Positions 34,107 to 51,641 of a stretch of 51,721 bases of DNA are shown one piece after another (the first letter of the stretch is position 1; every line of letters starts with the position of its first letter). The position numbers were made by a program, and so were the translations under genes. Under the pieces are notes generated by a model that worked only from the letters and a program-made list of their open reading frames with translations, was not told the origin of the DNA and did not search any database. The DNA lies in NCBI GenBank assembly GCA_016937995.1, contig JAFGVM010000063.1, positions 1 to 51,721 on the forward strand, read 5' to 3'. This DNA is from Candidatus Delongbacteria bacterium (GTDB lineage Bacteria; UBA4055).

Positions 34107-34709
34107 TTATTTTAATTCTTTTACTACGTAATTCAGTGACTTTTTAAGAGGCCCTTCACTTATTTTCTTAGGATATCCTACAGGTATAACTGCCATGAAC
34201 TCACCTTTTTCTTCTCCTAAAAATGACAATACCTTGTTTTTTACCAGGAACATGATCCCAAGCCATACACTTCCTAAACCTAACGAAGTGGCTGCTAAAA
34301 GCAGATTCTCAGTTGCTGCTGCTGAACTTTGGATCTCCATGGTTCTAAAAAAATCATTTGAAAGGTCTTTTTCTACTTTGAATAGGTCATTTCCGTGTTC
34401 TATCAGAGATCCGGTATTAACAACGGCTATAACGACCGGTGCACTTTCAATACTTCTGGCAGCCATCCTTAGTATTGATGAAGAAGGTTTAATGAAGTTT
34501 GATGAGCTGTCAGCCACGAGTTGGGCAAGGTCATGCTTTTTTTTCTCTTTTATGACAATGAATTTCCAGGATTGTTTGTTATGGGCAGATGGTGCCTGAT
34601 TCGCCGCATCAAGAATATTCTTGATCAATTCATCATTAACATTTTCATCTGTAAACTGCCTGACACTATGTCTTTGATAAATATTGTTAATAATTTCGTT
34701 TTGTTTCAT
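34107..34709 (-). CDS. Nitroreductase family protein
   Basis: RHSVRQF, APSAHNKQSWKF, LLAATSLGLGSVW, PVGYP. Confidence 0.92.
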   Translation of the reverse strand: MKQNEIINNIYQRHSVRQFTDENVNDELIKNILDAANQAPSAHNKQSWKFIVIKEKKKHDLAQLVADSSSNFIKPSSSILRMAARSIESAPVVIAVVNTGSLIEHGNDLFKVEKDLSNDFFRTMEIQSSAAATENLLLAATSLGLGSVWLGIMFLVKNKVLSFLGEEKGEFMAVIPVGYPKKISEGPLKKSLNYVVKELK

Positions 34710-34730
34710 TACTTTTCCACATTTTCCGAA

Positions 34731-35222
34731 TTATTGTGATAAACTGTCAATTATTTCTCTTGCCCATTTCTTAGCTTCAGAAGCATCTTTTTCTTTCTCA
34801 TGTTTCAAAGGATCTTTAAAACCTATTTTCCCAAGGATCGTATTTCCCTCTAATTTCTTTTCCATTTTTTCAAATATTTTCCCCGGTCCACCTCCATGAC
34901 AACAAAAAATACCTATCTGTTTATTTTTTAGTTCAATTTTTGAAAAAAAAGTCCTTAATGCAGGTGCGAACGTCCATGCCCAGACGGGTGTTCCTATTAT
35001 TATCGTGTCATAAGAAGATGGGTCTAAATCGAAGGGTTGTATTTCAGGCTCAGCTTTCATCATTGACTGCTTTCCGCCAGAAAATATTTTCATGAAATTA
35101 TTCCTTGTAATTTCTTTTACCGGTTTTAATTCTAGAATGTCAGCACTTATCTCTTGTGCAATATTTTCCGATATAAATTTGGTATTTCCGTCCAATGAGT
35201 AGTAAACAACTAATTTCCTCAT
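34731..35222 (-). CDS. Flavodoxin-like protein
   Basis: VYYSLDGNTK, IGTPVWAW, FCCHGG. Confidence 0.9.
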   Translation of the reverse strand: MRKLVVYYSLDGNTKFISENIAQEISADILELKPVKEITRNNFMKIFSGGKQSMMKAEPEIQPFDLDPSSYDTIIIGTPVWAWTFAPALRTFFSKIELKNKQIGIFCCHGGGPGKIFEKMEKKLEGNTILGKIGFKDPLKHEKEKDASEAKKWAREIIDSLSQ

Positions 35223-35239
35223 ACTATTCTCCCGATCTT

Positions 35240-35827
35240 TTATTTACCAATGTAAGTGATCTTGATCAATATTGAATCTGTGGATTTCAGGATCAATTTT
35301 TCAGTTCCACTATCAATCAAGTGGAATAAATTTTGTTTAGGCAGTGTCAACTCGTTATTTCCAATTAATATTATTGAGTCTTTCTCATGATTATAGACAA
35401 ATAATTCATCACTGTCTTTTTCAATTTCACTTTCTCCACTTAGAATTTCAACTGATGTTCTGCATTTCTCTCTGAGTGACATTACATTAAAATCTTTGAT
35501 CTCACCATTGATCAGTGTTGCATTTGTTCTGAGCTCTCCGGAAAAATTTGCCACATCAAGTATATCCCGAAGCTCTCTTCTGCTTCCGTCTGAGTGAACA
35601 AGATCAAGCCCGTTACCTTCAAGCATCAACAGATACCTTTCATAACCTGAGAATTCAGAGAAAGGACCATCAGTCTTAACACCTGCAATACTTATCCTCC
35701 AGATAAAGTTCCCGTAGCCCTGAATATATTTAATGATAAGTTCGTTTGTCGTTCCAAGACCATTCCTCCACGGAACGCTTTTGAAAAGATTAGGCGGTAT
35801 TATTTTATAGAATATACCTTTATTCAT
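35240..35827 (-). CDS. HutD/Ves family cupin-like protein
   Basis: PWRNGLGTT.E, WRISIA, PFS.F.GY.R, DFNVM. Confidence 0.88.
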   Translation of the reverse strand: MNKGIFYKIIPPNLFKSVPWRNGLGTTNELIIKYIQGYGNFIWRISIAGVKTDGPFSEFSGYERYLLMLEGNGLDLVHSDGSRRELRDILDVANFSGELRTNATLINGEIKDFNVMSLREKCRTSVEILSGESEIEKDSDELFVYNHEKDSIILIGNNELTLPKQNLFHLIDSGTEKLILKSTDSILIKITYIGK

Positions 35828-36153
35828 TTTTTCTTCTTTTTTTTAGGTTTCGGCTCAGGTAACTGGTTGTATGAAATTTTCAGAAGTCTAGACAACCACT
35901 CTCTGTCCTCAATTTGTTCCCCGATCAGAAAACTGTTTTTTGCACCAGGATACGGAGGAACTTCATCAGGTACCCCAATGAACTTTCTCCCGTTATCTGT
36001 GGGTTTTATGAACAAATTGTTGTCACAGATCAATCCTACGATCTTCTTGTTAATATAAATACCATATTCACCGAACATTTTTTTATAACTAATCTCATGC
36101 TCAGAATCTATCTGACCAATTACATAATCAACAAATTCCTGATCTGAAGCCAT
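35824..36153 (-). CDS. TfoX/Sxy N-terminal domain protein
   Basis: KKMFGEYGIY, LICDNNLFIKPT, PPYPGAK, basic tail. Confidence 0.88.
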   Translation of the reverse strand: MASDQEFVDYVIGQIDSEHEISYKKMFGEYGIYINKKIVGLICDNNLFIKPTDNGRKFIGVPDEVPPYPGAKNSFLIGEQIEDREWLSRLLKISYNQLPEPKPKKKKKK

Positions 36154-36266
36154 ACATTTTCCCTATTCCAAAATTATTAACAATCCAATGTATAGAATTT
36201 AGGTAGTATTTTGCAATATTAAAATACATTGAAAAAATCTATTTTTTTTCGTATTTTCCAAATCCA

Positions 36267-37172
36267 ATGGAAAAAGAAAGTTATAAAAAATATTTAGATC
36301 CTACATTCATCTCAAATTATTCGAACCTGAAGCTTACAACAGATATGGTTTTAGAAGGATTTATCCTTGGGATTCATTCAAGTCCTATGAAAGGTTTCAG
36401 TGCTGAATTTTCACAGCATAAGCAATACAATCCGGGTGATCCAACAAGATTCATTGACTGGAAAATATTTGGCAAAACGGAGAAGTATTACATAAAACAA
36501 TACGAAGATGAGACAAATCTTTATGCTAATATTTTTCTGGACAAGACTCTTTCAATGTCTTACAAAGCTGAAGGTTCTAAATATTCCAAATTAGATTATG
36601 GTAAACAACTTGCTGCAGCGATCTCAGGGATATTTATAAACCAGAAAGATTCTGTGGGATACGGAACTATTGCCAATAAACTGAAAATATACATACCGCC
36701 GAAATCTTCAAGACAACAGCTAAAAACTCTATTGGTTAATATCGATAAAAATGATACTTACGATTCTGACAGAACTGTAGATTCATATGAAGAAATAAGT
36801 TTGAAACTGATAAAATCAGGAATAACGGTAATTATTTCAGATTTTTTAGAGGAACCTGATAGAATTATTTCCAACATTCTTCTTCTGAAAAAAAGAAAAC
36901 AGGATATAATTATTTTTATGATAGCCGATGATTATGAGTACAATCTTGAATTTAAAAATAACTCAACCTTCATTGATTCGGAAACGGGAGAAAAATTAGT
37001 AGTTAAACCTTCCCAGTTGAAAATAAATTACAAAGGAATTTACGATGAACTTATCCATAAATATAAAAAGACCTTTTCCGAAAACAAAATTTACTTTAAA
37101 TTTGTTACAACTAAAACCCCATTTGATATTCCTTTGAGGGAGATAGTGTTAATAAGATCGAAAAGAATGTAA
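36267..37172 (+). CDS. DUF58 (vWA-like, MoxR partner) protein
   Basis: [32 protein letters not shown]. Confidence 0.9.
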
Positions 37173-37192
37173 AATTAACTATTGGAGATATA

Positions 37193-38617
37193 ATGACAAA
37201 TTACATTAATGAGAACTTACCTTATAAAGTTAAAGATATATCTTTGGCGGATTTTGGAAGAAAGGAAATTAACATTGCAGAGCATGAAATGCCCGGACTT
37301 ATGTCTATCAGAAAGAAATTCTCTGCAACAAAACCATTAAGGGATGTAAGAATTACAGGATCGTTGCACATGACCATACAGACTGCTGTTCTTATTGAAA
37401 CACTAGTGGACCTTGGGGCAGAAGTAAGATGGGCAAGTTGTAATATATTTTCAACTCAGGACCATGCAGCTGCCGCAATTGCCGAAAGAAATATACCTGT
37501 ATTTGCATGGAAAGGTGAAACTTTGGAAGAATTCTGGTGGTGTACTGCCCAGTCTTTATCCTTTCCGGGTGGCAAAGGACCTCAGCTGATAGTTGATGAC
37601 GGTGGTGATGCAACATTGATGATCCATAAGGGTTATTATGCTGAGAAAGATCCTTCGAAGTTAGTTATTTCTGAAAATATGGCAATGGATGAGAAAGAAC
37701 TGTTAAAAGCTTTGAAGCTAATGTTAGATGAAACTCCTCAAAAATGGCATGAAGTTGTAAAAGATCTTAAAGGTGTTTCAGAAGAAACTACCACTGGTGT
37801 TCACAGATTGTATAAAATGCACGAGAATAAAGAATTACTTATACCTACGATCAATGTGAACGACTCTGTCACAAAATCTAAATTTGATAATCTTTATGGT
37901 TGTAGAGAATCTTTACCTGACGGTATTAAACGTGCTACTGATGTAATGCTTGCAGGTAAAGTGGCAGTTGTTTGCGGTTATGGTGATGTAGGAAAGGGTT
38001 CAGCCCGTTCTTTGAAAAATTATGGATCAAGGGTTATAGTTACCGAGATAGATCCTATATGTGCTTTACAGGCGGCAATGGAAGGTTACGAAGTGTCAAC
38101 AGTTGAGGATACATTGGGAGAAGGTGATATTTATGTCACAACTACCGGAAATAAAGATGTTATTACTCTTAACCATATGTTGAAGATGAAAGATCAGGCC
38201 ATAGTTTGCAATATAGGACATTTTGATAATGAGATACAGGTTGATCCACTTGAAAATTCCCCCGAATTATTAGAGAAGATAAATATAAAACCGCAAGTTG
38301 ATAAGTATAAGTTCAAGAATGGGAATGAAATATTTTTACTTGCTGAAGGAAGACTGGTAAATCTTGGTTGTGCGACCGGACATCCGTCTTTTGTCATGAG
38401 TAACTCATTTACAAATCAGGTTCTTGCTCAAATAGATCTTTGGGAAAATAATTATGAAGTAGGAGTATATAGATTATCTAAACAAGCAGATGAAGAAGTT
38501 GCTAGATTACATTTGGAAAAGATCGGTGTTAAGTTAACAAAATTATCTAAGGAACAGGCTGATTATATCGGGGTTGATCCTGAGGGTCCTTACAAACCTG
38601 ACCATTATAGATATTAA
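37193..38617 (+). CDS. ahcY: Adenosylhomocysteinase
   Basis: [55 protein letters not shown]-terminus. Confidence 0.98.
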
Positions 38618-38624
38618 ATGATCC

Positions 38625-38650
38625 AAAAAGTGCAGATAACTGCACTTTTT
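38625..38650. terminator. Bidirectional intrinsic terminator
   Basis: AAAAAGTGCAG-ataa-CTGCACTTTTT between convergent ahcY and the kinase gene. Confidence 0.85.
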
Positions 38651-41151
38651 TATTTTAAGATATTTTTAACCTTGATTGAAAGATCGGTAATATTAAACGG
38701 CTTTTGAATAAAACCACTCCCTCCATTTTCGAGGATCTTGGTTATTTTATTTGTAACACTATAACCGCTTGAAACCAGTACTTTTACTTTCGGATCGATC
38801 TTTTTCAATTCTCTGAATATTTCTTCACCATCCATTTTCGGCATTATCATATCAAGTATAACAAGCTTGATGTTCTCATGCTCTTTTTTAAATATATCCA
38901 ATCCATCCGTACCGCTCATCGCCAAAATAGGTAAATAATTTAAACTTTTCAAAACTTCTGAAGTTGTTTCCAAAACCAATTTTTCATCATCGATTATTAA
39001 AACTTTCTGATTATCACCATAAATTAACTCCTTAGGATCAAAATCATTTTCATCCAGATCTTTTTGAGTGACAGGAAGAAAAATATCAAATATAGTTCCG
39101 ATACCTTTCGTACTGTGCAGAGTTATGATCCCGTTATGGTTTTTAACGATGCCGAATACCGAAGAAAGACCTAGACCGGTTCCTTTTTCTCTATGCTTTG
39201 TCGTAAAGAATGGATCAAACACTCTTTTCTGTGTCTCTTTGTCCATACCTATACCATTATCTTTGATCGATATCTTGATATATTCTCCTGTTGGTAGATT
39301 GTAAGGTTCAACAAAGTCAGAATTCAGAATTACATTTTTTGTTTCAACATATATCTCACCTTTGGAAACAATTGCCTGTGATGCGTTAACCATGATGTTC
39401 AAAATGATCTGATGCATCTGAGTTTTATCAGCCTCTATATTCTTTAGATCCTTATCAAGATTCTCTACAGTTGTTATATCTTTATTTGTGCGAATAAAGA
39501 ATTTCAGTACTGAATTGATTATTTCATTCATATTCAAAGATATAAGATCATACTTGCCACCTTTAGCGATACCAAGCATTTGTTTAGCTAAATTGGATGC
39601 GCTGTCTATATAATTTTCGATCTTTCCCAACTTTTCCGAGCTTTTTTCATCTTCATTGAGTTTTAATTTTAATATGGAGATATTTCCCTGAATACCCATA
39701 AGAATATTATTGAAATCATGTGCAATTCCGGCTGCGAGGTTACCCAAGGCTTCCATTTTTTCAGAATGTTGCATTTTCTCCTGAAATAATCTTTCTCTAA
39801 CTTCAGCTTTCTTATACTCATTAATGTCGGTGCCTATGATCTGAAATTCTGTAATAATACTTTCTGAATTAAATATTGCCCTGACTGTCCAATAGCACCA
39901 AAATTCGTCTATTCCTTTTTTAATCGAATGTTCAAAATTAGTTATCGGATTTTCCAGTGTTAATTTATCCACAAGTCTGACTATTTTGTTCTTATCATCC
40001 TTAAAAAACAGATCATAAATATTGTTGTTCTTAAGTTTTATTTTATCAGTCTTAAAAATATTTACTGCTGTTCTGTTAAAGAACAATATTCTGCCATCTT
40101 TATCAAATCTGCAAATTATTGATGTAATATCTTTTATGATGGCTCTGCAAAGCCTTCTGCTTTCTCTGAGAGATTTTTCTGTTAACTTTCTTTGTTCCCG
40201 GTCATGGATCAAATTATTGTAAGAAGTTATTTTATTTATAGTGTAAAATATCCCTGCTATCAACAGAATTACGATCAATACAGCTTTATAGATAAACTCA
40301 TGCATTTCAGCAATTATTGAACCCTCGTCAATAGAATAAAATATTTTCCAGTAGTTTCCGTATGGCAAATTAAGCTTTATATGAAATCCTATCTTTTTCT
40401 TTGAATCTATCTTGTATTCAATATCCCCTTCATCTTCAGACAGAACTCTTTTTACAACATCAGAAAAATCATCATTTCTCATATTTATTTCATACATACT
40501 ATTTCCATTCTCGGAAATATAATTACTGTTCAGGATTATACCTTTAGCACTTACAACCCGTCTCTCAACTTCACGTTTTTGCAATAATATTTTATCCACA
40601 TACTTATTCAACAGTTCATCAAAGGAAATTAAATACGCGATCGAACCGTTATATTTATCATCAACAAATATTGGATAGTGGATAACTATCGATCTATAAC
40701 CCTGAACTGCATCAAAGACGTCACTTATAACTGGTTCATGAGTGGACAATATTTTTTTCATATGGTCCTGATAGGCGATATTGACACCTAATGCTTTTTC
40801 ATTGTAAGGATAGGTGTATATTATGTTCGCATTGGAATCTGTTCTTGTGATCGCTCTGACAAAACCACCATTTACTTCTATATACATCTTGCTTAACCAG
40901 TCAAGGTCCCCTACCTGTTTAAAATATTTGATAGATTTTCTTTCAGACTTCATCTGGAGATCTTTAGCTATCATATCAAGCTGGGTTTCTATTCCGACAG
41001 AAGTTTGATATGCCAGCATTTTATATTCAGCAAGTTCCTGCTCTATTGACTTATTCTTCATGTCAGTATAGTGTGAATAGAAAACATATGAAAAAGAGAT
41101 CACGAACAATATTGCAATTATTACAGATATACTTACCCTTTTATCACTCAT
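38650..41151 (-). CDS. Hybrid sensor histidine kinase (TM-Cache-TM-PAS-HisKA-HATPase-REC)
   Basis: AHDFNNIL H-box, DNGIGM, FDPFFTTK, GTGLGLS; receiver IIDDE...LDMIMP...FIQKPF. Confidence 0.93.
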   Translation of the reverse strand: MSDKRVSISVIIAILFVISFSYVFYSHYTDMKNKSIEQELAEYKMLAYQTSVGIETQLDMIAKDLQMKSERKSIKYFKQVGDLDWLSKMYIEVNGGFVRAITRTDSNANIIYTYPYNEKALGVNIAYQDHMKKILSTHEPVISDVFDAVQGYRSIVIHYPIFVDDKYNGSIAYLISFDELLNKYVDKILLQKREVERRVVSAKGIILNSNYISENGNSMYEINMRNDDFSDVVKRVLSEDEGDIEYKIDSKKKIGFHIKLNLPYGNYWKIFYSIDEGSIIAEMHEFIYKAVLIVILLIAGIFYTINKITSYNNLIHDREQRKLTEKSLRESRRLCRAIIKDITSIICRFDKDGRILFFNRTAVNIFKTDKIKLKNNNIYDLFFKDDKNKIVRLVDKLTLENPITNFEHSIKKGIDEFWCYWTVRAIFNSESIITEFQIIGTDINEYKKAEVRERLFQEKMQHSEKMEALGNLAAGIAHDFNNILMGIQGNISILKLKLNEDEKSSEKLGKIENYIDSASNLAKQMLGIAKGGKYDLISLNMNEIINSVLKFFIRTNKDITTVENLDKDLKNIEADKTQMHQIILNIMVNASQAIVSKGEIYVETKNVILNSDFVEPYNLPTGEYIKISIKDNGIGMDKETQKRVFDPFFTTKHREKGTGLGLSSVFGIVKNHNGIITLHSTKGIGTIFDIFLPVTQKDLDENDFDPKELIYGDNQKVLIIDDEKLVLETTSEVLKSLNYLPILAMSGTDGLDIFKKEHENIKLVILDMIMPKMDGEEIFRELKKIDPKVKVLVSSGYSVTNKITKILENGGSGFIQKPFNITDLSIKVKNILK

Positions 41152-41302
41152 AGAATTTTTCTCGTTAAATATTCCCCCTACATGTCAATAATATATAGTT
41201 TAAAGATTGTAAAAACAATATGCGAATTATTATAATTTGATTTTATCCGGATTTTAGCTTAAATTATCTATTCACTTAAATAATTATCTCCCGGAATAGA
41301 AC

Positions 41303-42364
41303 ATGATAAAGTATTTTTTGATCTTTTTTCTTCTCACTTTTTCTGCTGGATCATTACTTTACTCAGAGGATCAAAAAATATCTAAAAAAAATAATAAGAC
41401 TGAATATTTGGTCCTACCGTTCGGGTATTATAATCCAACCACCAATTTTGGCTTTGGACTATATTCAATTTTTTTATTTAAAGAAAACTCCAACAGTGAA
41501 AGATCTAGATTGAGAACTGAAATCTCCTACACGCTAAATGATCAGATAATTTTTAGGTATAAATCTTTTTTCTATTTGCAGAATTCCAGACTTTTAATGA
41601 AAGCAAATGTGAAAAAATTCATTTCCAACTATTATGGATTGTCGAACAATTCTGACAATGACAAAGAATCTTATTCCTACTTCAGTACGGATTTTATTCT
41701 TGACTTTAACCGGGATTTACATAAACATTTTTCCTACTCACTTCTATATGACCTTGATCTGTTTCATATAACTAAGTACGATGAAGGAGGAATGCTGGAA
41801 TATGACGGTTTCAATTATGATAAGATAAAATTTAATAATTGCCTAGGGTTTGGTTTTAATTATGAAAATGTCTCAAATAAATTCTTCCGGAACGGAATTT
41901 CTGCTGATATACAATATTTAACATCTTCAAGGATAATCGGCAGTGATAATAATTTTTCTGTATTTAACACTGATGTTAAGTATTTCCTTGCATATAAACA
42001 GAGCTCCATAAATCTTCAATCAGCCTCGAGATTCACCTTTGGAAATGTGCCTTTTACCAAATTATCATCTCTGGGAGGTACTGATAATTTAAGAGGTTAT
42101 CCAGATAAAAGATTTACTGACATGAATATGATATTATTTCAGAGCGAATTCGATTTCAGGATCTATAAAAAAGTATCCGGTTCATTATTCTATTCATTCG
42201 GAGATGTTTTTGATCCTTTCTCAGACTTAAGATTCAATAAATTGAAACAGGGTTACGGTATTGGTTTACTTTATGATCTTTTAGGTACAGCTATCAGAGT
42301 TGATGTAGCCACATCCCCTGAAAATGATATCCAGATCATAGCTACCGGAAATAGAGCTTTTTAA
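41303..42364 (+). CDS. Omp85/BamA-TamA superfamily outer-membrane barrel without POTRA domains
   Basis: Signal peptide, LGG..NLRGY loop-6 motif, GYGIG..., terminal Phe; only 353 aa. Confidence 0.75.
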   Translation: MIKYFLIFFLLTFSAGSLLYSEDQKISKKNNKTEYLVLPFGYYNPTTNFGFGLYSIFLFKENSNSERSRLRTEISYTLNDQIIFRYKSFFYLQNSRLLMKANVKKFISNYYGLSNNSDNDKESYSYFSTDFILDFNRDLHKHFSYSLLYDLDLFHITKYDEGGMLEYDGFNYDKIKFNNCLGFGFNYENVSNKFFRNGISADIQYLTSSRIIGSDNNFSVFNTDVKYFLAYKQSSINLQSASRFTFGNVPFTKLSSLGGTDNLRGYPDKRFTDMNMILFQSEFDFRIYKKVSGSLFYSFGDVFDPFSDLRFNKLKQGYGIGLLYDLLGTAIRVDVATSPENDIQIIATGNRAF

Positions 42365-42393
42365 AATAAAATAACCCCGTCGAACGGAGTTAC
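42364..42393 (-). terminator. Intrinsic terminator for the acc/carboxyltransferase operon
   Basis: Minus strand TAACTCCGT-tcg-ACGGGGTTA followed by TTTTATTT. Confidence 0.65.
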
Positions 42394-42418
42394 ATCAAAA
42401 GATTACATTACATATCAA

Positions 42419-44386
42419 TTATTTCTTATAAGCTATCAATGGCTGATCTTTTACCACACTGTCACCATCTTTACAAAGTACTGCAGTGATCTCACAATCA
42501 AATGGTGCTTCAATACCATTGAACAGTTTCATAGCTTCCACAATACATATTTTTTGCCCTGCAGTCACCTTATCACCCGTTTTGACCAGCTCAGGTTTTC
42601 CAGGACCGTCCGCTATGTAAAAAGTCCCGACCAAAGGTGAATTAATTGTATTGGTATGTTCACTTTTTTCAACAATATTTTCTTCAATGATATCTTCTTC
42701 AACAATAGTTTCTTCAGGAGTTTGAGGAGTTTCAACTTTTTTTGCAGCTTGAGGAACGACAATACCATCAGCTCCTATAGATATTGCAAAATCCCCTTTG
42801 GAAATTGTTAAACCGTCAGCATTCATCCCTGCCGCTGCACTGATTATTGAACTGAGTCCTTTATAATCATCTTTATGTAGTAATTTAGCAGGTTTCTTTT
42901 TTTCAGATTCATTTTTTTTAATTTCTTTAACCACATGCTTGTCAGATCTTTCAATTTCCTGCAATTCAATATCGGCTGGTACTGGATCACGTTCATCTTC
43001 AGGTTGAGAACGCCATTTAAAATATGCCATAGCAGTTTCAGGGAAAATACAATAGGAAATAATATCTTCCTCGCCGTGAATTAATTCAGGGTCCAGTTCA
43101 TCAGCTATCGTTGGAAGCATGGGCTTTATATCATCTGCAGGACGATGATCGATCGGTTTCTCTTTTCCCAATATCATTTTTACAAATTTGTTATCTAAAG
43201 GAACAGGTGACCGACCGTACTTACCACGAACATAATCCTTTACTTCGTTAGGAACTATTTTATATCTTTCCCCGGATAATACGTTCATAACTGCTTGTGT
43301 TCCTACTATCTGGCTTGTAGGTGTAACTAAGGGACAATATCCCAGATCAGCTCTGACCTTTATAACCTCGTCTAAAACAGCAGGTAATTTATGGAGTGAA
43401 TTCTGAATTTCCAATTGGGATTTAAAATTAGATATCATCCCTCCTGGTATTTGATGTATCAAAATCCCAGGATCAACCGTTTCAATTGCCTGGGCATTTT
43501 TCATAATTCTTTTTGGTTTTAGATCCTCGAAATATTTTGCTACCTTTAACAAAGCATCGAAATCGAGATTTGCTGAATAGCTGGTCTCATTAAATATAGC
43601 TGCCAAAGTTTCAACAGGTGGTTGAGCATTTATTCCGGCCATAGATGATATAGCACAATCGATAGCTCCCGCTCCTGCTCTAACACCTTCCACGTAAGCA
43701 GGTATGGCCATTCCGCTTGTACCGTGACAATGAAGTTGGATCGGGATTCCAATTTCTTTATTCAACGCGGTAACTAATTTTTCAGCTGTTAAAGGTGATA
43801 ATATTCCTGCCATATCCTTAATACAAATTGAATCTATTCCCAGGTCCATCTGGTCTTTTGCATCTTTAACATATTTTTCAATAGTATGAACAGGAGAGAT
43901 CGTATATGCGAGGGTTCCCTGTGCATGTCCACCGTATTTTTTAACTGCTTTTATTGCAGCTTCAAGGTTTCTTACATCGTTCAAAGCATCAAATATTCTG
44001 AAAATATCAATTCCATTTTTACAGGCGAGTTCTACAAATTTATCCACGACATCATCAGAATAATTCTTATAACCCACTATATTCTGTCCCCTAAGCAACA
44101 TTTGTAAGGGTGTGTTTTTTGCGTGTTTTTTAATTTCTCTTAATCTCTCCCATGGGTTTTCTCTTAGGAACCTCAGACATACATCAAAAGTAGCTCCACC
44201 CCACATTTCAAGAGAATAATACCCGACATTATCTATAACATCGATAATATCCAGCATATCTTTTGTTCTCATCCTGGTAGCCCAAATGGACTGATGTGCA
44301 TCTCTAAGTGTTGTATCAGTTATTCTTAGAGGAATATCATGCAGTGAATTTGTTTTACTTTTTTCAGTTTTAGATCTTATAGTCAT
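42419..44386 (-). CDS. Pyruvate/oxaloacetate carboxyltransferase (PycB/OadA/5S-type) fused to an AccB-like biotin carrier
   Basis: TLRDAHQS, EMWGGATFD, IKDMAG, LHCH, QIPGGMISN, LVTPTSQIVG; C-terminal SPLVGTFY...CIVEAMKLFN. Start moved to ATG 44386 after an AAGGTGA RBS. Confidence 0.9.
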   Translation of the reverse strand: MTIRSKTEKSKTNSLHDIPLRITDTTLRDAHQSIWATRMRTKDMLDIIDVIDNVGYYSLEMWGGATFDVCLRFLRENPWERLREIKKHAKNTPLQMLLRGQNIVGYKNYSDDVVDKFVELACKNGIDIFRIFDALNDVRNLEAAIKAVKKYGGHAQGTLAYTISPVHTIEKYVKDAKDQMDLGIDSICIKDMAGILSPLTAEKLVTALNKEIGIPIQLHCHGTSGMAIPAYVEGVRAGAGAIDCAISSMAGINAQPPVETLAAIFNETSYSANLDFDALLKVAKYFEDLKPKRIMKNAQAIETVDPGILIHQIPGGMISNFKSQLEIQNSLHKLPAVLDEVIKVRADLGYCPLVTPTSQIVGTQAVMNVLSGERYKIVPNEVKDYVRGKYGRSPVPLDNKFVKMILGKEKPIDHRPADDIKPMLPTIADELDPELIHGEEDIISYCIFPETAMAYFKWRSQPEDERDPVPADIELQEIERSDKHVVKEIKKNESEKKKPAKLLHKDDYKGLSSIISAAAGMNADGLTISKGDFAISIGADGIVVPQAAKKVETPQTPEETIVEEDIIEENIVEKSEHTNTINSPLVGTFYIADGPGKPELVKTGDKVTAGQKICIVEAMKLFNGIEAPFDCEITAVLCKDGDSVVKDQPLIAYKK

Positions 44387-44396
44387 TTTAGTCACC

Positions 44397-45341
44397 TTAT
44401 TTGTTGAAAACACCAATTTTGGAATATTTTTCGAATCTTTGTTTGATTATCTTTGATTCAGAGTAACCTTTGTACTTTTTTAAATACTTTATCAGAATTT
44501 TTTGTACTGATCGGGAAATCGCTGCATAATCGTTATGAGCACCACCTGTAGGTTCTTCAATTATTTCGTCAACAATTCCAAGTTCTTTTAATGGACCTGC
44601 TGTTATCTTCAATGCTTCAGCAGCTTTTTCGGCCATTGCGCCGTCTCGCCAGATTATTGAAGCACAACCTTCAGGAGAGATCACTGAATAGATGGAATGT
44701 GAAAGCATCAGTATTGAATCCCCGACCCCGATACCCAGTGCTCCACCGCTTCCACCTTCTCCAGAAACAACACAGATAATAGGAACTTTTATCTGGGCCA
44801 TCTCTACAAGGTTTCTGGCTATAGCTTCAGCCTGACCTCTTTCTTCTGCTTCCAATCCGGGAAAAGCTCCGGGAGTGTCGATAAAACTTATGATCGGTAC
44901 GTTATATTTTTCAGCCAGTTTCATTAACCTCAGCGCTTTTCTATAGCCTTCAGGTTTTGCCATTCCGAAATTACGTTCAACATTCTCGGATACATTTTTA
45001 CCCTTATTATGACCGATCAACATTACTGGAGCTCCATCAATCCTTGCAAATCCACCTATTAATCCTCGGTCATCCGCGAATCGACGGTCTCCGTGAAGTT
45101 CTATAAAATCGGTGAAGACCAATGTAATATAATCAGCGAAAACCGGTCTTTGATGATGTCTGGCGATCTGAACTGTTTCCCAAGGTGTGAGATTTGAAAA
45201 TTCAATCTCTTTTCTCGAATCTATCATTTTTTCTAGTTTTGATATTTGATCAGAAAACTCTTCATCCTGTGCTTCGGTCATATTTCTTAATTTTTCCAGC
45301 ATCTTTTCCATTTCAGATACTGAGGTCTCTTTTTTTGGCAT
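44397..45341 (-). CDS. accA: Acetyl-CoA carboxylase carboxyltransferase alpha
   Basis: ELHGDRRFADD, FGMAKPEGYRKALR, IDTPGAFPG..AEERGQ, GEGGSGGAL, SVISPEGCASI. Confidence 0.96.
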   Translation of the reverse strand: MPKKETSVSEMEKMLEKLRNMTEAQDEEFSDQISKLEKMIDSRKEIEFSNLTPWETVQIARHHQRPVFADYITLVFTDFIELHGDRRFADDRGLIGGFARIDGAPVMLIGHNKGKNVSENVERNFGMAKPEGYRKALRLMKLAEKYNVPIISFIDTPGAFPGLEAEERGQAEAIARNLVEMAQIKVPIICVVSGEGGSGGALGIGVGDSILMLSHSIYSVISPEGCASIIWRDGAMAEKAAEALKITAGPLKELGIVDEIIEEPTGGAHNDYAAISRSVQKILIKYLKKYKGYSESKIIKQRFEKYSKIGVFNK

Positions 45342-45352
45342 TTACTTCCTCT

Positions 45353-46180
45353 CTATCTGTTATAGAATGATAATACCTGATACAAGGTATTTTTCATACT
45401 GGATCTGTTTGCGATCAAGTCGACAAATCCATGCTCCAGTAAATACTCAGAGGTCTGAAAATCATCAGGTAATTTCTGCTTGATCGTATTTTCAATAACT
45501 CTTCTTCCGGCAAATCCGATAACAGCTCCCGGTTCTGCAATATTAATATCACCAACAGTCGCGAAAGACGCTGAAACTCCACCGGTGGTAGGATCTGTTA
45601 ATACAGAAATAAATGGAACTTTACGCTCATCAAGTCTTGATATGCCTGCACAGGTTTTTGCCATTTGCATCAAAGAAAGTATCCCTTCATGCATCCTGGC
45701 TCCACCGGAGGCTGAGAATATTATTAACGGTATTTTCTTTTCATAGGAATAGTTAGAAGCCAATAATATCTTTTCACCCGTTCCGGAACCCAGGCTTCCA
45801 CCCATGAATCTGAAATCCATGACAGCTACAACTACTTTTAAACCATTTATCTTACCTGTACCTGTTACAATAGCCTCGTTCAGACCTGTTTTTTTTCGAG
45901 TATTTTCCACCTTAACAGCATAACTCTCTTTTGCATCTGTGAACTTTAAAGGATCAGCAGGATAAATTGAGATATTCAATTCCTCAAAAGTACCTGAATC
46001 CAGTATCAATCCTATCCTTTCGTATGAAGTTATTTTGGAATGATAATTACATTTAGGACAAACATTAAGATTATTATGCCAGTCTTCCCTGAATATATGA
46101 TTACCGCACCTTGGACACTTGATCCATATATCTGCGGATCTATTCTCAGTTCTTTTTTTTGATTTACTAAACCAAGCCAT
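45353..46180 (-). CDS. accD: Acetyl-CoA carboxylase carboxyltransferase beta
   Basis: WIKCPRC...VCPKC zinc finger, FMGGSLG, SGGARM.EG, PTTGGVSAS, IGFAGRRVI. Confidence 0.96.
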   Translation of the reverse strand: MAWFSKSKKRTENRSADIWIKCPRCGNHIFREDWHNNLNVCPKCNYHSKITSYERIGLILDSGTFEELNISIYPADPLKFTDAKESYAVKVENTRKKTGLNEAIVTGTGKINGLKVVVAVMDFRFMGGSLGSGTGEKILLASNYSYEKKIPLIIFSASGGARMHEGILSLMQMAKTCAGISRLDERKVPFISVLTDPTTGGVSASFATVGDINIAEPGAVIGFAGRRVIENTIKQKLPDDFQTSEYLLEHGFVDLIANRSSMKNTLYQVLSFYNR

Positions 46181-46221
46181 TAGTTTTACCTGCTTTATTA
46201 TTTTTTAAAAGAAGATTAAAA

Positions 46222-46419
46222 CTAGTTTTCAACAACTCCGTTTATCTCGGTCATAAAATCTTCAACTTTGATTCCGTGTGCGATCAATCCGTCCTCTAAA
46301 CTCTCAAAGCTTGCAGCCATACAGCCTATACATCCTAAGTTGTACTTTACAAATACCGGGTGTGTCTGTGGATATTCTTTTAAAATATCTGTTATTGACA
46401 TTTCTTTTTTGATCTTCAT
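46222..46419 (-). CDS. DUF1858 / redox-disulfide small protein
   Basis: I.DIL..YP...VF..Y.LGCIGC.AA.FESLEDG..AHG. Confidence 0.85.
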   Translation of the reverse strand: MKIKKEMSITDILKEYPQTHPVFVKYNLGCIGCMAASFESLEDGLIAHGIKVEDFMTEINGVVEN

Positions 46420-46437
46420 TTTTATCTCCTTATAATT

Positions 46438-46794
46438 TTAATTGTTCAAAAGTTTATCTCTTGCTTCAAGGGCCAGTCTCAGGCTGTGTGATTTCTTTTC
46501 AGGAATTCCTCCAAGAAGTTCATCCATTTGTTCAAATGTTATACTCTTCGCATCCTGAATAGTTTTACCTATCAACATTGTACTTAATAATGAAAATGCA
46601 GTAATGGTTCCACTGCATGCTTTAAGCTTATACTTAAAGTCAATTATAATACCGTTATCTATTTTTGCAAAAGCCTGAACAGTATCGAAACATCCACCCT
46701 CTTCATTTTTTACTGAACATTTTGAATCTGCTCCTTCAATAACTCCAATATTTTTTGGAGCTGCAAAATGCTCCATATAAGTTTTTGAATACAT
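46438..46794 (-). CDS. IscU/NifU-N-like scaffold protein lacking the third Cys
   Basis: MYS..YMEHF..PKNIG, GCFD, ACSG, LGGIPEKKSHS. Start set at ATG 46794. Confidence 0.8.
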   Translation of the reverse strand: MYSKTYMEHFAAPKNIGVIEGADSKCSVKNEEGGCFDTVQAFAKIDNGIIIDFKYKLKACSGTITAFSLLSTMLIGKTIQDAKSITFEQMDELLGGIPEKKSHSLRLALEARDKLLNN

Positions 46795-46798
46795 GTGA

Positions 46799-48061
46799 TT
46801 ATTTTCCCTGCATGATTTTTTCGATCTCATTAATTTCTACCGGTATCGATCTTGAAAGATTCTCATGTCCGGTCGAAGTAACTAAAATATCATTTTCCAA
46901 TCTTATACCGATACCTTTTTCCGCTATATATATACCTGGTTCTACAGTAATAACATTGTTTTTTACCAGTGGTTTATTTCTGTCGCCCACATCGTGAGTA
47001 TCAAGACCGAGAAAATGGCTAACACCATGGTAATAATAAGAGGATAATTCCTCTTTCTTTTTAAGTATCTTAAGCTTCTTTAATCCTTTGAACAGAACAT
47101 CTTTGGATATTTCCTGCAGTTCCATCAATGTAACTCCGGGTTTTACTGCCTTAGTAACTTCTTTCAGAGCAGTAAGGACAACATCATAATATTTTTTTTG
47201 ATTTTCACTGAACTTCCCCTTTACTGGGAAAGTCCTTGAAATATCCGCTGCGTAATTTTTATATTCAGCACCGGTATCTATAAGTATCAGATCGTTCTTT
47301 TGTGTTTTCTTATCATTTTGTTCATAATGTAAAATAGTTGCATCTTTCCCTGAAACTGCGATTGTTTGAAATGCAGGTTGTTTTGAGCCATTTTTAACGT
47401 AATTATAAAGCAAAATAGCCTCACATTCATTTTCAGTAATCCCGGTCCTAGTCTTAGACAGCAGATCTCTTATAGCAATTTCAGTAATCTCAACAGCTCT
47501 TTTCATCATTTTTATTTCATATGGGCTTTTTATACTCCTCATTTCATCTATTATCTTATTAACAGCTGATATCTTAATAAAGTTGAATCTTCTTCTTAAG
47601 TTTGAAGCGAATACTTGGGTGTATGACGGTATTATCTCATCAACTGTACTTTCGTTATACATGTATACATTTTCAATTCCGTAGCCACTGAAAAGCAATG
47701 TATAAATATCCCCCAGTTCCTTGATACTGTTTATACTCTTTATTCCTGAAATTTTAATTATCTCTTCATCTGTAAAATCTTTACCTATCCACTTTTCCAA
47801 ATTTTTATCCAGTATATTTCTGTAGATCCTGGAGGTTGTAACTCCCCCGATCTTTGTCATTACAAGAACTGCTCGGTTAAGTTCCAAACCAGTAAAATAG
47901 AAGAAATTACTGTCCTGCCTGAATTTGTAGAAAGTATCAGCGTTCTTTATTTTGTTTACGGAAGACATAATGAATACTACAGAATTATCATCTACTTTAT
48001 TGAACAGCTTTTTTCTGTTTGAAATAAAAAATGTTTTCGGGAATTCTAGGTTCTTCAGCAT
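46799..48061 (-). CDS. pepP: Xaa-Pro aminopeptidase (M24B)
   Basis: FRQDSNFFYFTG, LIDTGAEY..YAADISRT, HGVSHFLGLDTHD, TVEPGIY, GIRLENDILV. Confidence 0.9.
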   Translation of the reverse strand: MLKNLEFPKTFFISNRKKLFNKVDDNSVVFIMSSVNKIKNADTFYKFRQDSNFFYFTGLELNRAVLVMTKIGGVTTSRIYRNILDKNLEKWIGKDFTDEEIIKISGIKSINSIKELGDIYTLLFSGYGIENVYMYNESTVDEIIPSYTQVFASNLRRRFNFIKISAVNKIIDEMRSIKSPYEIKMMKRAVEITEIAIRDLLSKTRTGITENECEAILLYNYVKNGSKQPAFQTIAVSGKDATILHYEQNDKKTQKNDLILIDTGAEYKNYAADISRTFPVKGKFSENQKKYYDVVLTALKEVTKAVKPGVTLMELQEISKDVLFKGLKKLKILKKKEELSSYYYHGVSHFLGLDTHDVGDRNKPLVKNNVITVEPGIYIAEKGIGIRLENDILVTSTGHENLSRSIPVEINEIEKIMQGK

Positions 48062-48078
48062 TTTTGATCCTTATTGAT

Positions 48079-50466
48079 TTATTTGTAAATATCATCGTCA
48101 TCAAAGAAATTTTCGTCTGGGTAATCTTCCCTTTCTATTTCAAATTTCTTTGCACCCTTGTTGAAACCATACTCACTCTCTTCATTCTGACCTTCATGAT
48201 CATCTTCATCAGTGTTAGAAGAATCTTCAGTCAGGAATTCCTCATTGTTAAATGTATTACTGTCTCTTTCTATCACGACATCTTCGACAGTTGGGAATGA
48301 AATTCTAAAAATAGTTCCCTCGTTCATTTTAGACCTTACATCTATAGCACCTTTATAATCCTCTACAATGCTTTTAACAATGCTCAATCCCAGTCCCAGT
48401 CCTTTTCCCATTTCTTTGGTAGTGTAAAACGAATCGAAAATCCTGCCTATGTCAGATTCATTAATTCCATAACCGTTGTCTTCTATTTCGAGAATTATAT
48501 TCTTATTCTCGAATTTTGTGGATATCCTGATAACTCCCTGATCAGAATGAAGACCTTTTTGAGATATAGCATCTTTAGCATTTGACAGTAGATTAAAAAG
48601 TATCTGTGCGATCTCCTGATAGTTACATCTTAACAAAGGAAGCCTTGGATGAAGATCAAGATCGACAGTTGCATTATATTTAATATTATTCTTGACAAGT
48701 ATCAGTACGTCCTTAATGATCTCATTAACCGAATTAGGAGTATATTCTCTGCTGAAGTAGCTCATTTTCGAAGTACTGTTGACTATCTGCTCAATAATAC
48801 CGATAGATTTCTTATTACTGTTAACGAGACTTTTAAGATCATTAAATACTCTGCTGATCTCATGTTTTTTAACTAACTTTTTAATTTCAAGGGCAACTTT
48901 TTTATCTGTGGTTTTAACTTTAATTAGATCATAAATGAACAAAGTTAGATCGTTAAGACTAAGCCTGATATTATCCAATGATAGTTTTATTACCTGACTG
49001 GGATTTCTTATTTCATGGGTTATCCCGGCTAATAGTGTGCCTAGAGATACCATTTTGTCCAATCTTGAAGCATCTTTTTCAGAGTGAAGTAATTTTTCAT
49101 TGGACTCATTCAATTTATCAGTTGTGATCTTTATCTCTTCGTTCAATTTTTTATTCAATGCTTCGATCTCAAGTGAATATTTGTTCAGCAGTTCCTGTCT
49201 GGTAGACTTGAGCTTGTAAGATCTGTAAACAAAGTACAGAACCAGAACGGACAGCAAGAATATTATGAGAAAAAAATTGTTGATGCTTTTTTGTTTTTCA
49301 AGATTGGATAATGCATACTGATTATCTCTGATCTGGGAATAAAGCTGTTTTTCTTTCTGTTCCAGATTGTATTTTTTTTCAAGCTCAGCTATTTTATGTT
49401 CTTTTTCTGAATCAAGTATCTCGCTGTTTACTCTGTTATATTCCTGAAGATTGGAGAAAGCATTTTTAAAATTATTTGAAGCTGAATCAGCTTTAATAAT
49501 AAATTGAAGATTATTCCTAACCATCACTTTGACGCCCATCTCTTCAAATGCTTTTTTACTCTTATTTAAATATTTTTTTGCCGTAACGAATTTTTTTGTA
49601 ATAAAGTATGCTTTGCCATAATTGTGATCAGTTAATCCTAATCCGTAATTATCATTAACTTTTTTGAAAATGGCAGAAGCTGATCTTAAATTTTTTACCG
49701 CTTCATTAAATTTACCCAGCTCAATATAAATATCTGACATATTGTTCATTATGATAGCCTGATAATGCTCGAGCTTCTCATTTTCATAGATCTTCAGAAC
49801 CTTTTTTAAGTTATTTAAAGCTTCGTCTAGTTTCCCTTGATGACTGTAAACTACAGATATGTTATTCAGAACTTTAGCTACATCCATTATATTCAGTAAG
49901 GATCGGTAGATGTCCAGGGCTTCGTTAAGATTCTCCAGCGCTTTATCATAATCTTTCATTTCATCAAAAACCAGTCCAATATCATTTAAGGCTTCAGCTC
50001 TGGAAAAATTATCGCTGATGTTATCGGCATACTTAAGTGACTTATAGAAGAATATCAGAGCATTATTATAGTCCGACAATTGATAGTATGACTGACCTAT
50101 TTCCTTGGTCAGTGTTATTATCATAGGTTTGTCTAACAGTTCCTCATAAATTTTAAGAGAGGATCTGTATTCGTCAACTGATTCGACATATTTACTTTGA
50201 TCAAAAAGCAGATTCCCTTTTTCATAGTGGATCTTTGCTTTCATATCGATCTTGCCGTACTCGACTGCCAGACCTTGAGCCTCTTCAAGAAGCTCAATAG
50301 CTCTAACTGAATTATCGGTAGATATTTTCTCAGCTAACTGGATCAGCAATCCTATCTTCTGATCACCTGAAGCTGTGTTTATAAGATTTTCCAGAGAATC
50401 TTTCTCTTGAGCATATATTAAAACTATTGCAAATAAAAGTATAATTCCAATTAACGATCGCTTCAT
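48079..50466 (-). CDS. TPR-repeat sensor histidine kinase
   Basis: Signal peptide, periplasmic TPRs (LNDIG, LNNIS, MNNMS), TM, THEIRNP H-box, DNGYGI, FYTTK, GLGLGLS; acidic tail. Confidence 0.92.
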   Translation of the reverse strand: MKRSLIGIILLFAIVLIYAQEKDSLENLINTASGDQKIGLLIQLAEKISTDNSVRAIELLEEAQGLAVEYGKIDMKAKIHYEKGNLLFDQSKYVESVDEYRSSLKIYEELLDKPMIITLTKEIGQSYYQLSDYNNALIFFYKSLKYADNISDNFSRAEALNDIGLVFDEMKDYDKALENLNEALDIYRSLLNIMDVAKVLNNISVVYSHQGKLDEALNNLKKVLKIYENEKLEHYQAIIMNNMSDIYIELGKFNEAVKNLRSASAIFKKVNDNYGLGLTDHNYGKAYFITKKFVTAKKYLNKSKKAFEEMGVKVMVRNNLQFIIKADSASNNFKNAFSNLQEYNRVNSEILDSEKEHKIAELEKKYNLEQKEKQLYSQIRDNQYALSNLEKQKSINNFFLIIFLLSVLVLYFVYRSYKLKSTRQELLNKYSLEIEALNKKLNEEIKITTDKLNESNEKLLHSEKDASRLDKMVSLGTLLAGITHEIRNPSQVIKLSLDNIRLSLNDLTLFIYDLIKVKTTDKKVALEIKKLVKKHEISRVFNDLKSLVNSNKKSIGIIEQIVNSTSKMSYFSREYTPNSVNEIIKDVLILVKNNIKYNATVDLDLHPRLPLLRCNYQEIAQILFNLLSNAKDAISQKGLHSDQGVIRISTKFENKNIILEIEDNGYGINESDIGRIFDSFYTTKEMGKGLGLGLSIVKSIVEDYKGAIDVRSKMNEGTIFRISFPTVEDVVIERDSNTFNNEEFLTEDSSNTDEDDHEGQNEESEYGFNKGAKKFEIEREDYPDENFFDDDDIYK

Positions 50467-50690
50467 TTTAAAGTCTCCCTCGCATACGTGTGCGTTAAGA
50501 ATAAGATGTTAATTTATGTTTTTTATACAAAATTCACAAGTTAATAAATGTAAAAAATCCCGGACATATTATTTTAAACAGAACGATCATTTTGATATTA
50601 AAGCATTATCCAACTCAATATATTTTTTAATCTTGCAAAACGGAATAATAATTCTCATTATTAATAGTCAAGAAATTAAAGGAGTTGATT

Positions 50691-51641
50691 ATGCGCAGCG
50701 AGGATTTCAATAAAGCTTTCGAAACATATTCAAAGATCAAGAAAAATATACTGACAGTGTTCAAAGGTGATCCGTTCAATATAGATCTATTGCTTAGCGG
50801 TTATTTCACTAACGGTCATATTTTGCTTGAAGATTATCCCGGTACAGGTAAAACAACTTTGGCAAAAGCTCTGGCACTGTCTATTCAAACAGATTTTAAG
50901 AGAATTCAGTTCACACCGGATCTTTTACCAACAGATATAACCGGAGTTAATGTTTTTAATGTAAAGGATCAAAATTTTTATCTACAGAAAGGTCCTGTAT
51001 TTACTAACATACTTTTAGCGGATGAGATCAACAGAACAACTTCCAGAACTCAATCAGCCTTACTTGAAGCAATGGAGGAAAAGCAGGTCACTATAGACGG
51101 AACAATATATCCATTAAGTGATGATTTTTTTGTTGTTTCAACACTGAATCCAGCGGAACTTCAGGGAACCTATCCACTACCTGAATCACAGATAGACAGG
51201 TTTGCACTTCGATTCTCACTTGGATATCTATCTAAAAAAGAAGAAGTAGAAATGCTTGAAATGAAAAATCCATCAAAACCATTAGCAGAACTTTCATCAT
51301 GTTCCACAAGAGATGAAATTCTTCAAGTCAGAGCAGTTCTGGATGAAATAACAGTTCATGATGATATAAAGGATTTTATAGTTGAGCTTGTAAGAAGAAC
51401 AAGATCATACGATGGAATTCTTATAGGTGCAAGCCCGAGAGCATCAATTGCCCTACAGAAATTATCCAAAGTACTGGCATTATCCGAAAATAAACAGTTC
51501 GTCACCCCGGACCATGTTATAAAACTGGCACCTTTTGTTCTTGGTCATAGATTAATATTCGATCAATTCGTTAATGATGAAGAGACAAAACAGATAGATA
51601 TTATCGACAACATTATCAAAGAAACCCCTGTTCCGAAGTAA
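50691..51641 (+). CDS. MoxR family AAA+ ATPase (second paralog)
   Basis: LEDYPGTGKT, RIQFTPDLLPTD, LADEINR, QGTYPLPESQIDRF; ATG at 50691 after AAGGAG. Confidence 0.95.
   Translation: MRSEDFNKAFETYSKIKKNILTVFKGDPFNIDLLLSGYFTNGHILLEDYPGTGKTTLAKALALSIQTDFKRIQFTPDLLPTDITGVNVFNVKDQNFYLQKGPVFTNILLADEINRTTSRTQSALLEAMEEKQVTIDGTIYPLSDDFFVVSTLNPAELQGTYPLPESQIDRFALRFSLGYLSKKEEVEMLEMKNPSKPLAELSSCSTRDEILQVRAVLDEITVHDDIKDFIVELVRRTRSYDGILIGASPRASIALQKLSKVLALSENKQFVTPDHVIKLAPFVLGHRLIFDQFVNDEETKQIDIIDNIIKETPVPK

Follow-up and report, generated by a model that had tools for sequence, protein, structure and literature searches.

How does a bacterium obtain malonyl-CoA for fatty-acid synthesis when no biotin carboxylase can be recognised in its genome? 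The question is raised by a locus in a 51,721-nucleotide stretch of Candidatus Delongbacteria DNA (the window), in which accD and accA, the genes for the two carboxyltransferase subunits of acetyl-CoA carboxylase (ACC), stand next to a gene for a fusion protein that joins a carboxyltransferase of the 5S/PycB/OadA type to a biotin carrier of the AccB type. To our knowledge, bacterial fatty-acid synthesis has been taken to begin universally, and of necessity, with ACC and its ATP-dependent biotin carboxylase. It is probable that these three genes instead encode a heteromeric, ATP-independent oxaloacetate:acetyl-CoA transcarboxylase that supplies malonyl-CoA. The preliminary description of this DNA had proposed that malonyl-CoA is formed here from oxaloacetate and acetyl-CoA, and gene content supports the proposal: accC is absent, type II fatty-acid synthesis (FAS II) is present, and an unrelated family of bacteria has AccA, AccD and the fusion only. 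Gene content, operon form, catalytic residues, carrier type and the absence of biotin carboxylase can be seen directly; the support that they lend to a transcarboxylase is of one kind, comparative genomics.

The accD-accA-fusion locus

The window is contig C8 of a metagenome-assembled genome (MAG; assembly G000, 2.75 Mb in 99 contigs, 96.95% complete), and its part from 37193 to 51641 was annotated with domain and equivalog models (Pfam, NCBIfam). Three consecutive open reading frames (ORFs) on the minus strand make up the locus (Table 1). The third can be read from a TTG as 665 aa (42419-44416); its start is likely the ATG at 44386, which has AAGGTG ahead of it and yields the 655 aa given in the preliminary description. 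The accA start is preceded by GAGGAAG. The tight packing noted earlier, with gaps of about 10 bp and a terminator at the end, was confirmed: 11 nt lie between the accD stop and the accA ATG, 10 nt between the accA stop and the fusion ATG, and a terminator-like hairpin (42393-42371) follows 25 nt past the fusion stop codon. Six terminator-like sites were counted in the region, against 2.8 +/- 1.7 in shuffled sequence. The GC content is 0.378 for the operon and 0.335 for the window, other parts of which reach 0.37. The earlier statement that accC/pycA, oadB and oadG are missing from the window holds for its annotated part, where biotin carboxylase, oadB and oadG were looked for and none was found.

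Both ACC-type subunits score above the cut-offs of their equivalog models. AccD contains PF01039 and PF17848, with a Zn ribbon at its N-terminus. The CoA side is a split AccA/AccD pair and not a single-chain 12S protein, for which the mmdA model TIGR01117 gives only 48-62 bits.

Table 1. Coordinates of the locus, with the parts and residues of the fusion protein
Feature	Position	Strand	Basis
accD, carboxyltransferase beta subunit, 275 aa	45353..46180	-	TIGR00515 379.5 bits (cut-off 317)
accA, carboxyltransferase alpha subunit, 314 aa	44397..45341	-	TIGR00513 435.5 bits (cut-off 319); PF03255 461.9 bits
Fusion: 5S/PycB/OadA-type carboxyltransferase, linker and AccB-type biotin carrier, 655 aa	42419..44386	-	Domain models, structure alignments
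Oxaloacetate/pyruvate carboxyltransferase domain, residues 20-465	42992..44329	-	Alignment to 2nx9, 5ks8, 1rqb
Putative metal ligand D29, motif RDAHQS	44288-44305	-	Column identical to 2nx9
Putative metal ligand K190, motif KDMAG	43805-43819	-	Column identical to 2nx9
Putative metal ligands H219/H221, motif HCH	43718-43732	-	Columns identical to 2nx9
Linker, charged, low-complexity, residues 466-579	42650..42991	-	Partly within TIGR00531 match
AccB-type biotinoyl domain with thumb, residues 580-652	42431..42649	-	Gap-free alignment to E. coli BCCP 1bdo/3bdo
Biotinyl-lysine K620 in EAMK	42527-42529	-	Motif in sequence
Intrinsic-terminator-like hairpin	42371..42393	-	10-bp stem, 3-nt loop, then T run TTTATTTT

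The fusion protein

What kind of enzyme is the fusion? Its Pfam content is HMGL-like, PYC_OADA and Biotin_lipoyl. It passes the cut-off of PRK09282, 'pyruvate carboxylase subunit B' (770 bits, cut-off 402), and misses those of the OadA equivalogs (TIGR01108, 688.7 against 756.5; PRK14040, 614 against 892). Among solved proteins, the carboxyltransferase domain is matched by Vibrio cholerae OadA (2nx9, 474 bits), PycB (5ks8, 473 bits) and the Propionibacterium 5S subunit (1rqb, 423 bits). The aligned D, K and HxH residues, which we take to be metal ligands as in the OadA structure 2nx9, are all present. The catalysts of both half-reactions, AccA/AccD on one side and the 5S domain with its D, K and HxH on the other, look intact. 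The three catalytic motifs are kept in 118 of the 120 nearest clusters formed at 90% identity, which are 60-100% identical and include that of the window.

The carrier half has a different affinity. The model for AccB/BCCP, TIGR00531, matches at about residues 526-654 (model positions 21-155) with 90 bits, which is short of the 115 that it requires of a whole protein. An alignment with E. coli BCCP (1bdo/3bdo) at 55 bits spans the C-terminal 73 residues without a gap and takes in the thumb segment. Matches to other carriers are weaker and all begin past the thumb: 38 bits for the gamma subunit of methylmalonyl-CoA decarboxylase, 34 bits for 1.3S (1dcz) and 24-29 bits for the PycB carrier. Classed by these alignments, the carrier is of the AccB type with thumb, the kind that serves AccA/AccD, and not of the PycB, OadA or 1.3S type. 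AccB-type spacing is the rule in the same 120 clusters (114 by a strict motif, five more by eye, and one truncated partial sequence), whereas the PycB-type proteins of three sampled families (f21, f11 and f22) have a shorter carrier without a thumb. The nearest named homologs of the fusion are from 'Candidatus Delongbacteria' MAGs. Public names of the homologs do not agree: some are called 'acetyl-CoA carboxylase biotin carboxyl carrier protein', some 'pyruvate carboxylase subunit B' and others 'oxaloacetate decarboxylase alpha'.

Absence of biotin carboxylase from the genome and the sampled phylum

Could a biotin carboxylase lie elsewhere in the genome? A search of the whole genome and of its relatives, as the preliminary description had suggested, found none. 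PF02785 (Biotin_carb_C) has no match in the genome, and the accC model TIGR00514 matched nothing but Ddl and PurD; a tblastn search with an authentic AccC of a different genome likewise reached only Ddl, at 27% identity. A separate accB is also lacking, since tblastn with a genuine AccB hits the C-terminus of the fusion and nothing else in the genome. CPSase_L_D2 and TIGR00514 together match only a D-Ala-D-Ala ligase (contig C28), PurD (contig C2) and an ATP-grasp_3 protein (contig C14). All three were rejected as a hidden biotin carboxylase, the first two being Ddl and PurD and the third having neither Biotin_carb_N nor Biotin_carb_C. On C14 (5815-10624), a 399-aa frame of the ATP-grasp_3/PylC-like kind is followed by a PLP-dependent decarboxylase of the Orn/DAP type and then by a 691-aa protein with urea-transporter and Peptidase_M23 domains.

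The absence extends to relatives. Biotin_carb_C was found in 0 of the 16 sampled genomes of the window's family, which is the whole sampled phylum; 11 of these genomes are at least 90% complete. The same search was positive in 324 of all 401 sampled genomes and in 13 of 14 control genomes. Above cut-off, fabD was found in 14/16 and fabF in 14/16 genomes of the family, the window's genome included. Because fabD and fabF are present and biotin carboxylase is found in none of the 16, the sampled phylum needs malonyl-CoA without a recognisable ATP-dependent biotin carboxylation.

A true accA and an ortholog of the fusion (83-85% identity) are confined within the family to the three genomes of the window's genus, where gene order is identical.

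An unrelated family with the same three proteins

Do other bacteria share this combination? The preliminary description thought it possible that other anaerobes have similar fusions, and fusions elsewhere were indeed found. All fractions given here describe the 401-genome sample only. Full-length matches to the fusion of at least 57% identity occur in just two places in it, the window's genus and f166, an unrelated family in another phylum, of which 151 genomes were sampled. None of the 13 genomes of f166 has a biotin carboxylase match, against 120 of the 138 others of that phylum; conversely, the close fusion is present in 11 of the 13 and in none of the 138, one partial match of 47% aside. 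The best database match of the f166 fusion is about 70% identical, and those from Fibrobacter and Chitinivibrionales are 61-63% identical.

Five f166 genomes, 90-97% complete, were searched in detail. All five have fabD, and OAD_beta was found in none of them. Carboxyl_trans matches number exactly two per genome, one AccD-like and the other AccA-like, and none is of the 12S type. The fusion alone gives a strong biotin-domain match, the rest staying at or below 27 bits save for one of 48.7 bits in a 449-aa frame (G333). As biotin carboxylase and the beta subunit are both missing, the only task left for the three proteins in f166 is a transfer of carboxyl between oxaloacetate/pyruvate and acetyl-CoA/malonyl-CoA.

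Fusions of 60-66% identity are carried by many organisms of the Fibrobacterota, Spirochaetota and Lentisphaerota. The balance tips slightly towards whole lineages (the Delongbacteria genus, f166 and possibly many Fibrobacterota, Spirochaetota and Lentisphaerota) running FAS II without ATP-dependent ACC, with AccD, AccA and the 5S-AccB fusion as the sole source of malonyl-CoA and with oxaloacetate provided by phosphoenolpyruvate (PEP) carboxykinase; this would be the broadest consequence of the gene content.

In the wider sample, tallied by hand, 61 of the 385 genomes outside the window's family have no biotin carboxylase match, and fabD is present in 41 of the 61. At least nine of these 41 also have a true AccA; counted differently, a true AccA occurs in 10 of the 50 biotin-carboxylase-negative genomes that fall within the first 330 of the sample. 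There seems to be no discussion, in the literature searched, of the malonyl-CoA source of bacteria that are positive for fabD and negative for biotin carboxylase. Classical 12S-BCCP-5S operons occur in three biotin-carboxylase-negative genomes, G019 and G188 (f5) and G357 (f179). In the phylum of G180, one of the f166 genomes, genera g373 and g374 have Biotin_carb_C in 0/3 and 0/9 genomes, and the close fusion is absent there as well; these genomes are 5.5-6.7 Mb in size and several are single contigs.

An essentially closed genome of 2.4 Mb, G024, has accD-accA beside pfkA and fabD and no biotin carboxylase match (C1, 1037000-1056000 and 2248000-2267000; L081, L082). Its OadA-like gene has no carrier and lies between a 2-hydroxycarboxylate transporter and citG-citE-citF. 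The family concerned, f10 (G024 and G193), was considered as a parallel system with unfused parts and rejected, since a 5S-only gene in a cluster for citrate transport and citrate lyase is an ordinary OadA.

A form in which Carboxyl_trans and 5S domains share one chain was not seen among the best 120 longer homologs, which is weak evidence; these are single-chain pyruvate carboxylases and one OadA-OadB fusion. The latter, P0122, is a metagenomic protein of 1272 aa with HMGL-like, PYC_OADA and OAD_beta in one chain.

Proposed mechanism and energetics

For the three proteins we infer what they catalyse, in which direction, and that they are physically coupled. K620 of the fusion would be biotinylated by BirA, for which the genome has a gene (134 bits, cut-off 83). 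The 5S-type domain would then move the C4 carboxyl of oxaloacetate onto biotin, with release of pyruvate, and the AccB-type carrier, on its linker of about 115 residues, would swing across to AccA/AccD. These subunits would hand the carboxyl to acetyl-CoA, and the resulting malonyl-CoA would be used by FabD and FAS II. Oxaloacetate would come from PEP and CO2 through PEP carboxykinase with a yield of ATP; an enzyme of the ATP type is encoded in the genome (692 bits). Since the ATP gained on the way from PEP through oxaloacetate to pyruvate would equal that of pyruvate kinase, malonyl-CoA would be made at no extra cost of ATP.

How might such a fusion have arisen? An AccB-type fusion of 50% identity is found in family f8, with the gene order dnaE-accA-sua5-fusion, and in genome G343, and all of these genomes also have a normal accB-accC pair. 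In these bacteria the fusion may be a PycB charged by AccC, which hints at how a 5S domain acquired an AccB-type carrier. It may be that a PycB-like subunit borrowed the AccB carrier in order to share AccC and later outlived the loss of AccC.

Several observations weigh against a transcarboxylase at this locus. The coexistence with accB-accC in f8 and G343 means that the fusion by itself is no proof of ATP independence. A survey of gene neighbourhoods, proposed in the preliminary description, gave a divided result: the order is the same throughout the window's genus, but the genes are dispersed in f166, with about 23 kb from fusion to accA in G180. The other six genera of the window's family have FAS II and lack both accA and the fusion. 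There are other biotin-enzyme parts in the window's own genome: a carboxyltransferase of the 12S type with a biotin protein of 111 aa on contig C20 (L038:1424-3310), a stand-alone 5S paralog of 552 aa without carrier on contig C41 (L037:6856-8514), and a Na+-pump beta subunit on contig C37 (TIGR01109, 482 bits). The C20 and C41 genes look like the set of a classical transcarboxylase. Given this set, and FAS II in genera without accA and the fusion, the cluster is not the sole conceivable source of malonyl-CoA. Finally, the window's genome is a MAG of 99 contigs, and absences in the other genomes come from one two-stage search.

All 15 other family genomes have 12S-type carboxyltransferases; in the six other genera there are two per genome, with a 5S paralog in 11 of 13 genomes. 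The 12S/5S set may be the source of malonyl-CoA in these six genera, and by gene content the window's genus owns, in addition, a dedicated set of the ACC type.

The chief physiological doubt about the transcarboxylase is the ratio of oxaloacetate to pyruvate. Cellular pyruvate is usually far above oxaloacetate. According to PMC8085960, the standard free energy of the methylmalonyl-CoA reaction of the Propionibacterium enzyme is about -2 +/- 10 kJ/mol, so that this reaction lies near equilibrium. With pyruvate in large excess over oxaloacetate, flux through such a reaction would need a favourable ratio or a strong pull by fatty-acid synthesis, and this too counts against the proposal.

Alternative explanations

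Is the fusion instead part of a sodium pump? It could be the alpha subunit of a Na+-translocating oxaloacetate decarboxylase that uses the C37 beta subunit, with accA and accD as mere neighbours or as a malonyl-CoA decarboxylase working on the same pump. The 5S part is as near to V. cholerae OadA as to PycB, homologs are labelled 'oxaloacetate decarboxylase alpha' in JGI data, and the earlier observation that oadB is missing, true of the window, does not extend to the genome, which has both the beta subunit and an OAD_gamma-like protein. However, these two genes belong to an operon that directly follows groES-groEL on C37 (about 34400-38300; L010:4429-8282) and consists of mmdA, the OAD_gamma-like gene (196 aa), a BCCP gene (153 aa) and the gene for the beta subunit. 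By its gene content this operon is a complete Na+ pump of the methylmalonyl-CoA decarboxylase type with its own carrier. In addition, the fusion falls short of the oadA cut-off (TIGR01108), its carrier is of the AccB and not of the OadA type, the five f166 genomes with a close fusion have no beta subunit, and a genuine OadA has a different setting, as in G024, where a citrate lyase cluster surrounds it and no carrier is fused to it. We therefore regard a pump as unlikely.

Is the system an ordinary ATP-dependent one after all? Its biotin carboxylase would then be unassembled, too divergent or non-homologous, and the fusion would be a carrier shared by acetyl-CoA and pyruvate carboxylases. The completeness of 96.95% and the 99 contigs of the MAG leave some room for this, one orphan ATP-grasp protein is encoded on C14, and the fusions beside accB-accC in f8 and G343 make sharing plausible somewhere. 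The preliminary description had offered a carrier shared through a distant AccC as its own alternative; the idea fits f8 and G343, with their more distant fusion, but does not fit the window's genome, which has no AccC. Against a missed gene speak the lack of biotin carboxylase in the 16 genomes of the phylum and the 13 of f166, the performance of the search on the controls and the negative tblastn result, while the C14 protein, devoid of both diagnostic domains, stands beside a decarboxylase of the Orn/DAP type and the urea-transporter/M23 protein. A hidden biotin carboxylase is distinctly unlikely.

The same three proteins might run in the opposite direction, from malonyl-CoA and pyruvate to acetyl-CoA and oxaloacetate, in the catabolism of malonate or malonyl-CoA or in anaplerosis. 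Biotin-dependent malonate decarboxylases, such as that of Malonomonas rubra with MadC/MadD, use carboxyltransferases resembling AccA/AccD. The transcarboxylase reaction is freely reversible (PMC8085960). However, the annotated part of the window contains no malonate-related gene, models for malonate decarboxylase give its proteins only 26-58 bits, far under the cut-off, and FAS II needs malonyl-CoA for which no other source was seen, which makes this direction very unlikely.

Least probable of all is that the beta subunit runs in reverse, driven by the Na+ gradient, and carboxylates the biotin of the fusion for use by AccA/AccD (to malonyl-CoA) and the 5S domain (to oxaloacetate): the genome has the subunit, and Dimroth and Hilpert reportedly described the reversal of such pumps in 1984, but f166 lacks it (0/5), nothing ties the cluster on C8 to the operon on C37, and ion-motive force would be spent although PEP carboxykinase can provide oxaloacetate.

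Comparison with known transcarboxylases and biotin enzymes

How does the proposed transcarboxylase compare with systems already described? It resembles the Propionibacterium transcarboxylase (EC 2.1.3.1; 12S, 5S and 1.3S subunits) in that a single biotin carrier couples two half-reactions and no biotin carboxylase or ATP takes part, and its 5S part is homologous (423 bits to 1rqb). According to PMC8085960, the Propionibacterium enzyme also takes acetyl-CoA as a side activity, and PMC12502205 describes the use of the 12S/5S/1.3S enzyme in engineering for the conversion of oxaloacetate to malonyl-CoA. The differences are a single-chain 12S subunit there and a split AccA/AccD here, and a free 1.3S subunit there and a fused AccB-type carrier with thumb here (34 bits to 1.3S against 55 bits to BCCP). 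Moreover, the window's genome owns a separate set of 12S, 1.3S-like and 5S-like proteins as well.

The transcarboxylase of protists is a fusion of ACC and pyruvate carboxylase in a single polypeptide. The Entamoeba and Giardia enzymes therefore differ in being eukaryotic and of one chain, whereas the system described here is bacterial and has three genes. PMC8136499, which cites Clark 2007 and Barbosa-Cabrera 2012, reports that the Entamoeba histolytica transcarboxylase makes malonyl-CoA from oxaloacetate and infers the same for Mastigamoeba. PMC7985675 names the Giardia fusion enzyme (Jordan et al. 2003) as a potential supplier of malonyl-CoA, and PMC3199775 cites it as well.

Among bacterial biotin enzymes, heteromeric AccABCD shares with the locus the AccA and AccD subunits, both above their equivalog cut-offs, and a carrier that aligns with E. 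coli BCCP without gaps, thumb included. It differs in its AccC, which is absent from this genome and from the sampled phylum, and in its AccB, which here is fused behind a 5S-type carboxyltransferase. PycA/PycB (5ks8) is close in the N-terminal 465 residues (473 bits), and the fusion passes PRK09282; there is no PycA here, however, the carrier reaches only 24-29 bits against PycB's own, and the operon partners are accD and accA, whereas in genome G035 a biotin carboxylase lies directly upstream. The OadA/OadB/OadG Na+ pump is similar in its carboxyltransferase domain, for which V. cholerae OadA gives 474 bits and shows the same metal ligands, but the fusion stays under the oadA cut-off, has no adjoining oadB or oadG, carries an AccB-type carrier and has close homologs in genomes without a beta subunit.

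The reaction is thus already known, and what would be new is not a category of enzyme but a bacterial form with a split ACC-type carboxyltransferase and a fused AccB-type carrier. The full texts searched describe neither a bacterial system of AccA/AccD with a 5S-AccB fusion nor FAS II bacteria without accC, Jordan et al. 2003, which possibly covers bacterial fusions of 5S and carrier, lying outside that search.

Implications

Acetyl-CoA carboxylase serves as a target for antibiotics, and metabolic reconstructions assume it as standard. The finding questions the assumed universality of its ATP-dependent form in bacteria with FAS II. If the three genes act as proposed, some anaerobes obtain malonyl-CoA without ATP by coupling its formation to the decarboxylation of oxaloacetate, and this would explain FAS II genomes without accC, such as the 41 of 385 outside the family that have fabD and no biotin carboxylase match. 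It would also mean that automatic annotations as 'AccB', 'PycB' or 'OadA' need correction. For metabolic engineers, the locus would be a compact natural module of three genes whose ACC-type parts are specific for acetyl-CoA, in place of the promiscuous Propionibacterium enzyme that is borrowed now.

Neighbouring genes

Just past the operon lies an ORF of 353 aa on the plus strand (41303-42364), with no Pfam match and a weak score of 56 bits for the Omp85 family (cut-off 200). Upstream of accD, the same strand carries genes for an Xaa-Pro aminopeptidase (46799-48061) and a NifU-like scaffold protein (46438-46830). Between these and accD is an ORF of 65 codons with DUF1858 (46222-46419, minus strand), which stops 41 nt ahead of accD.

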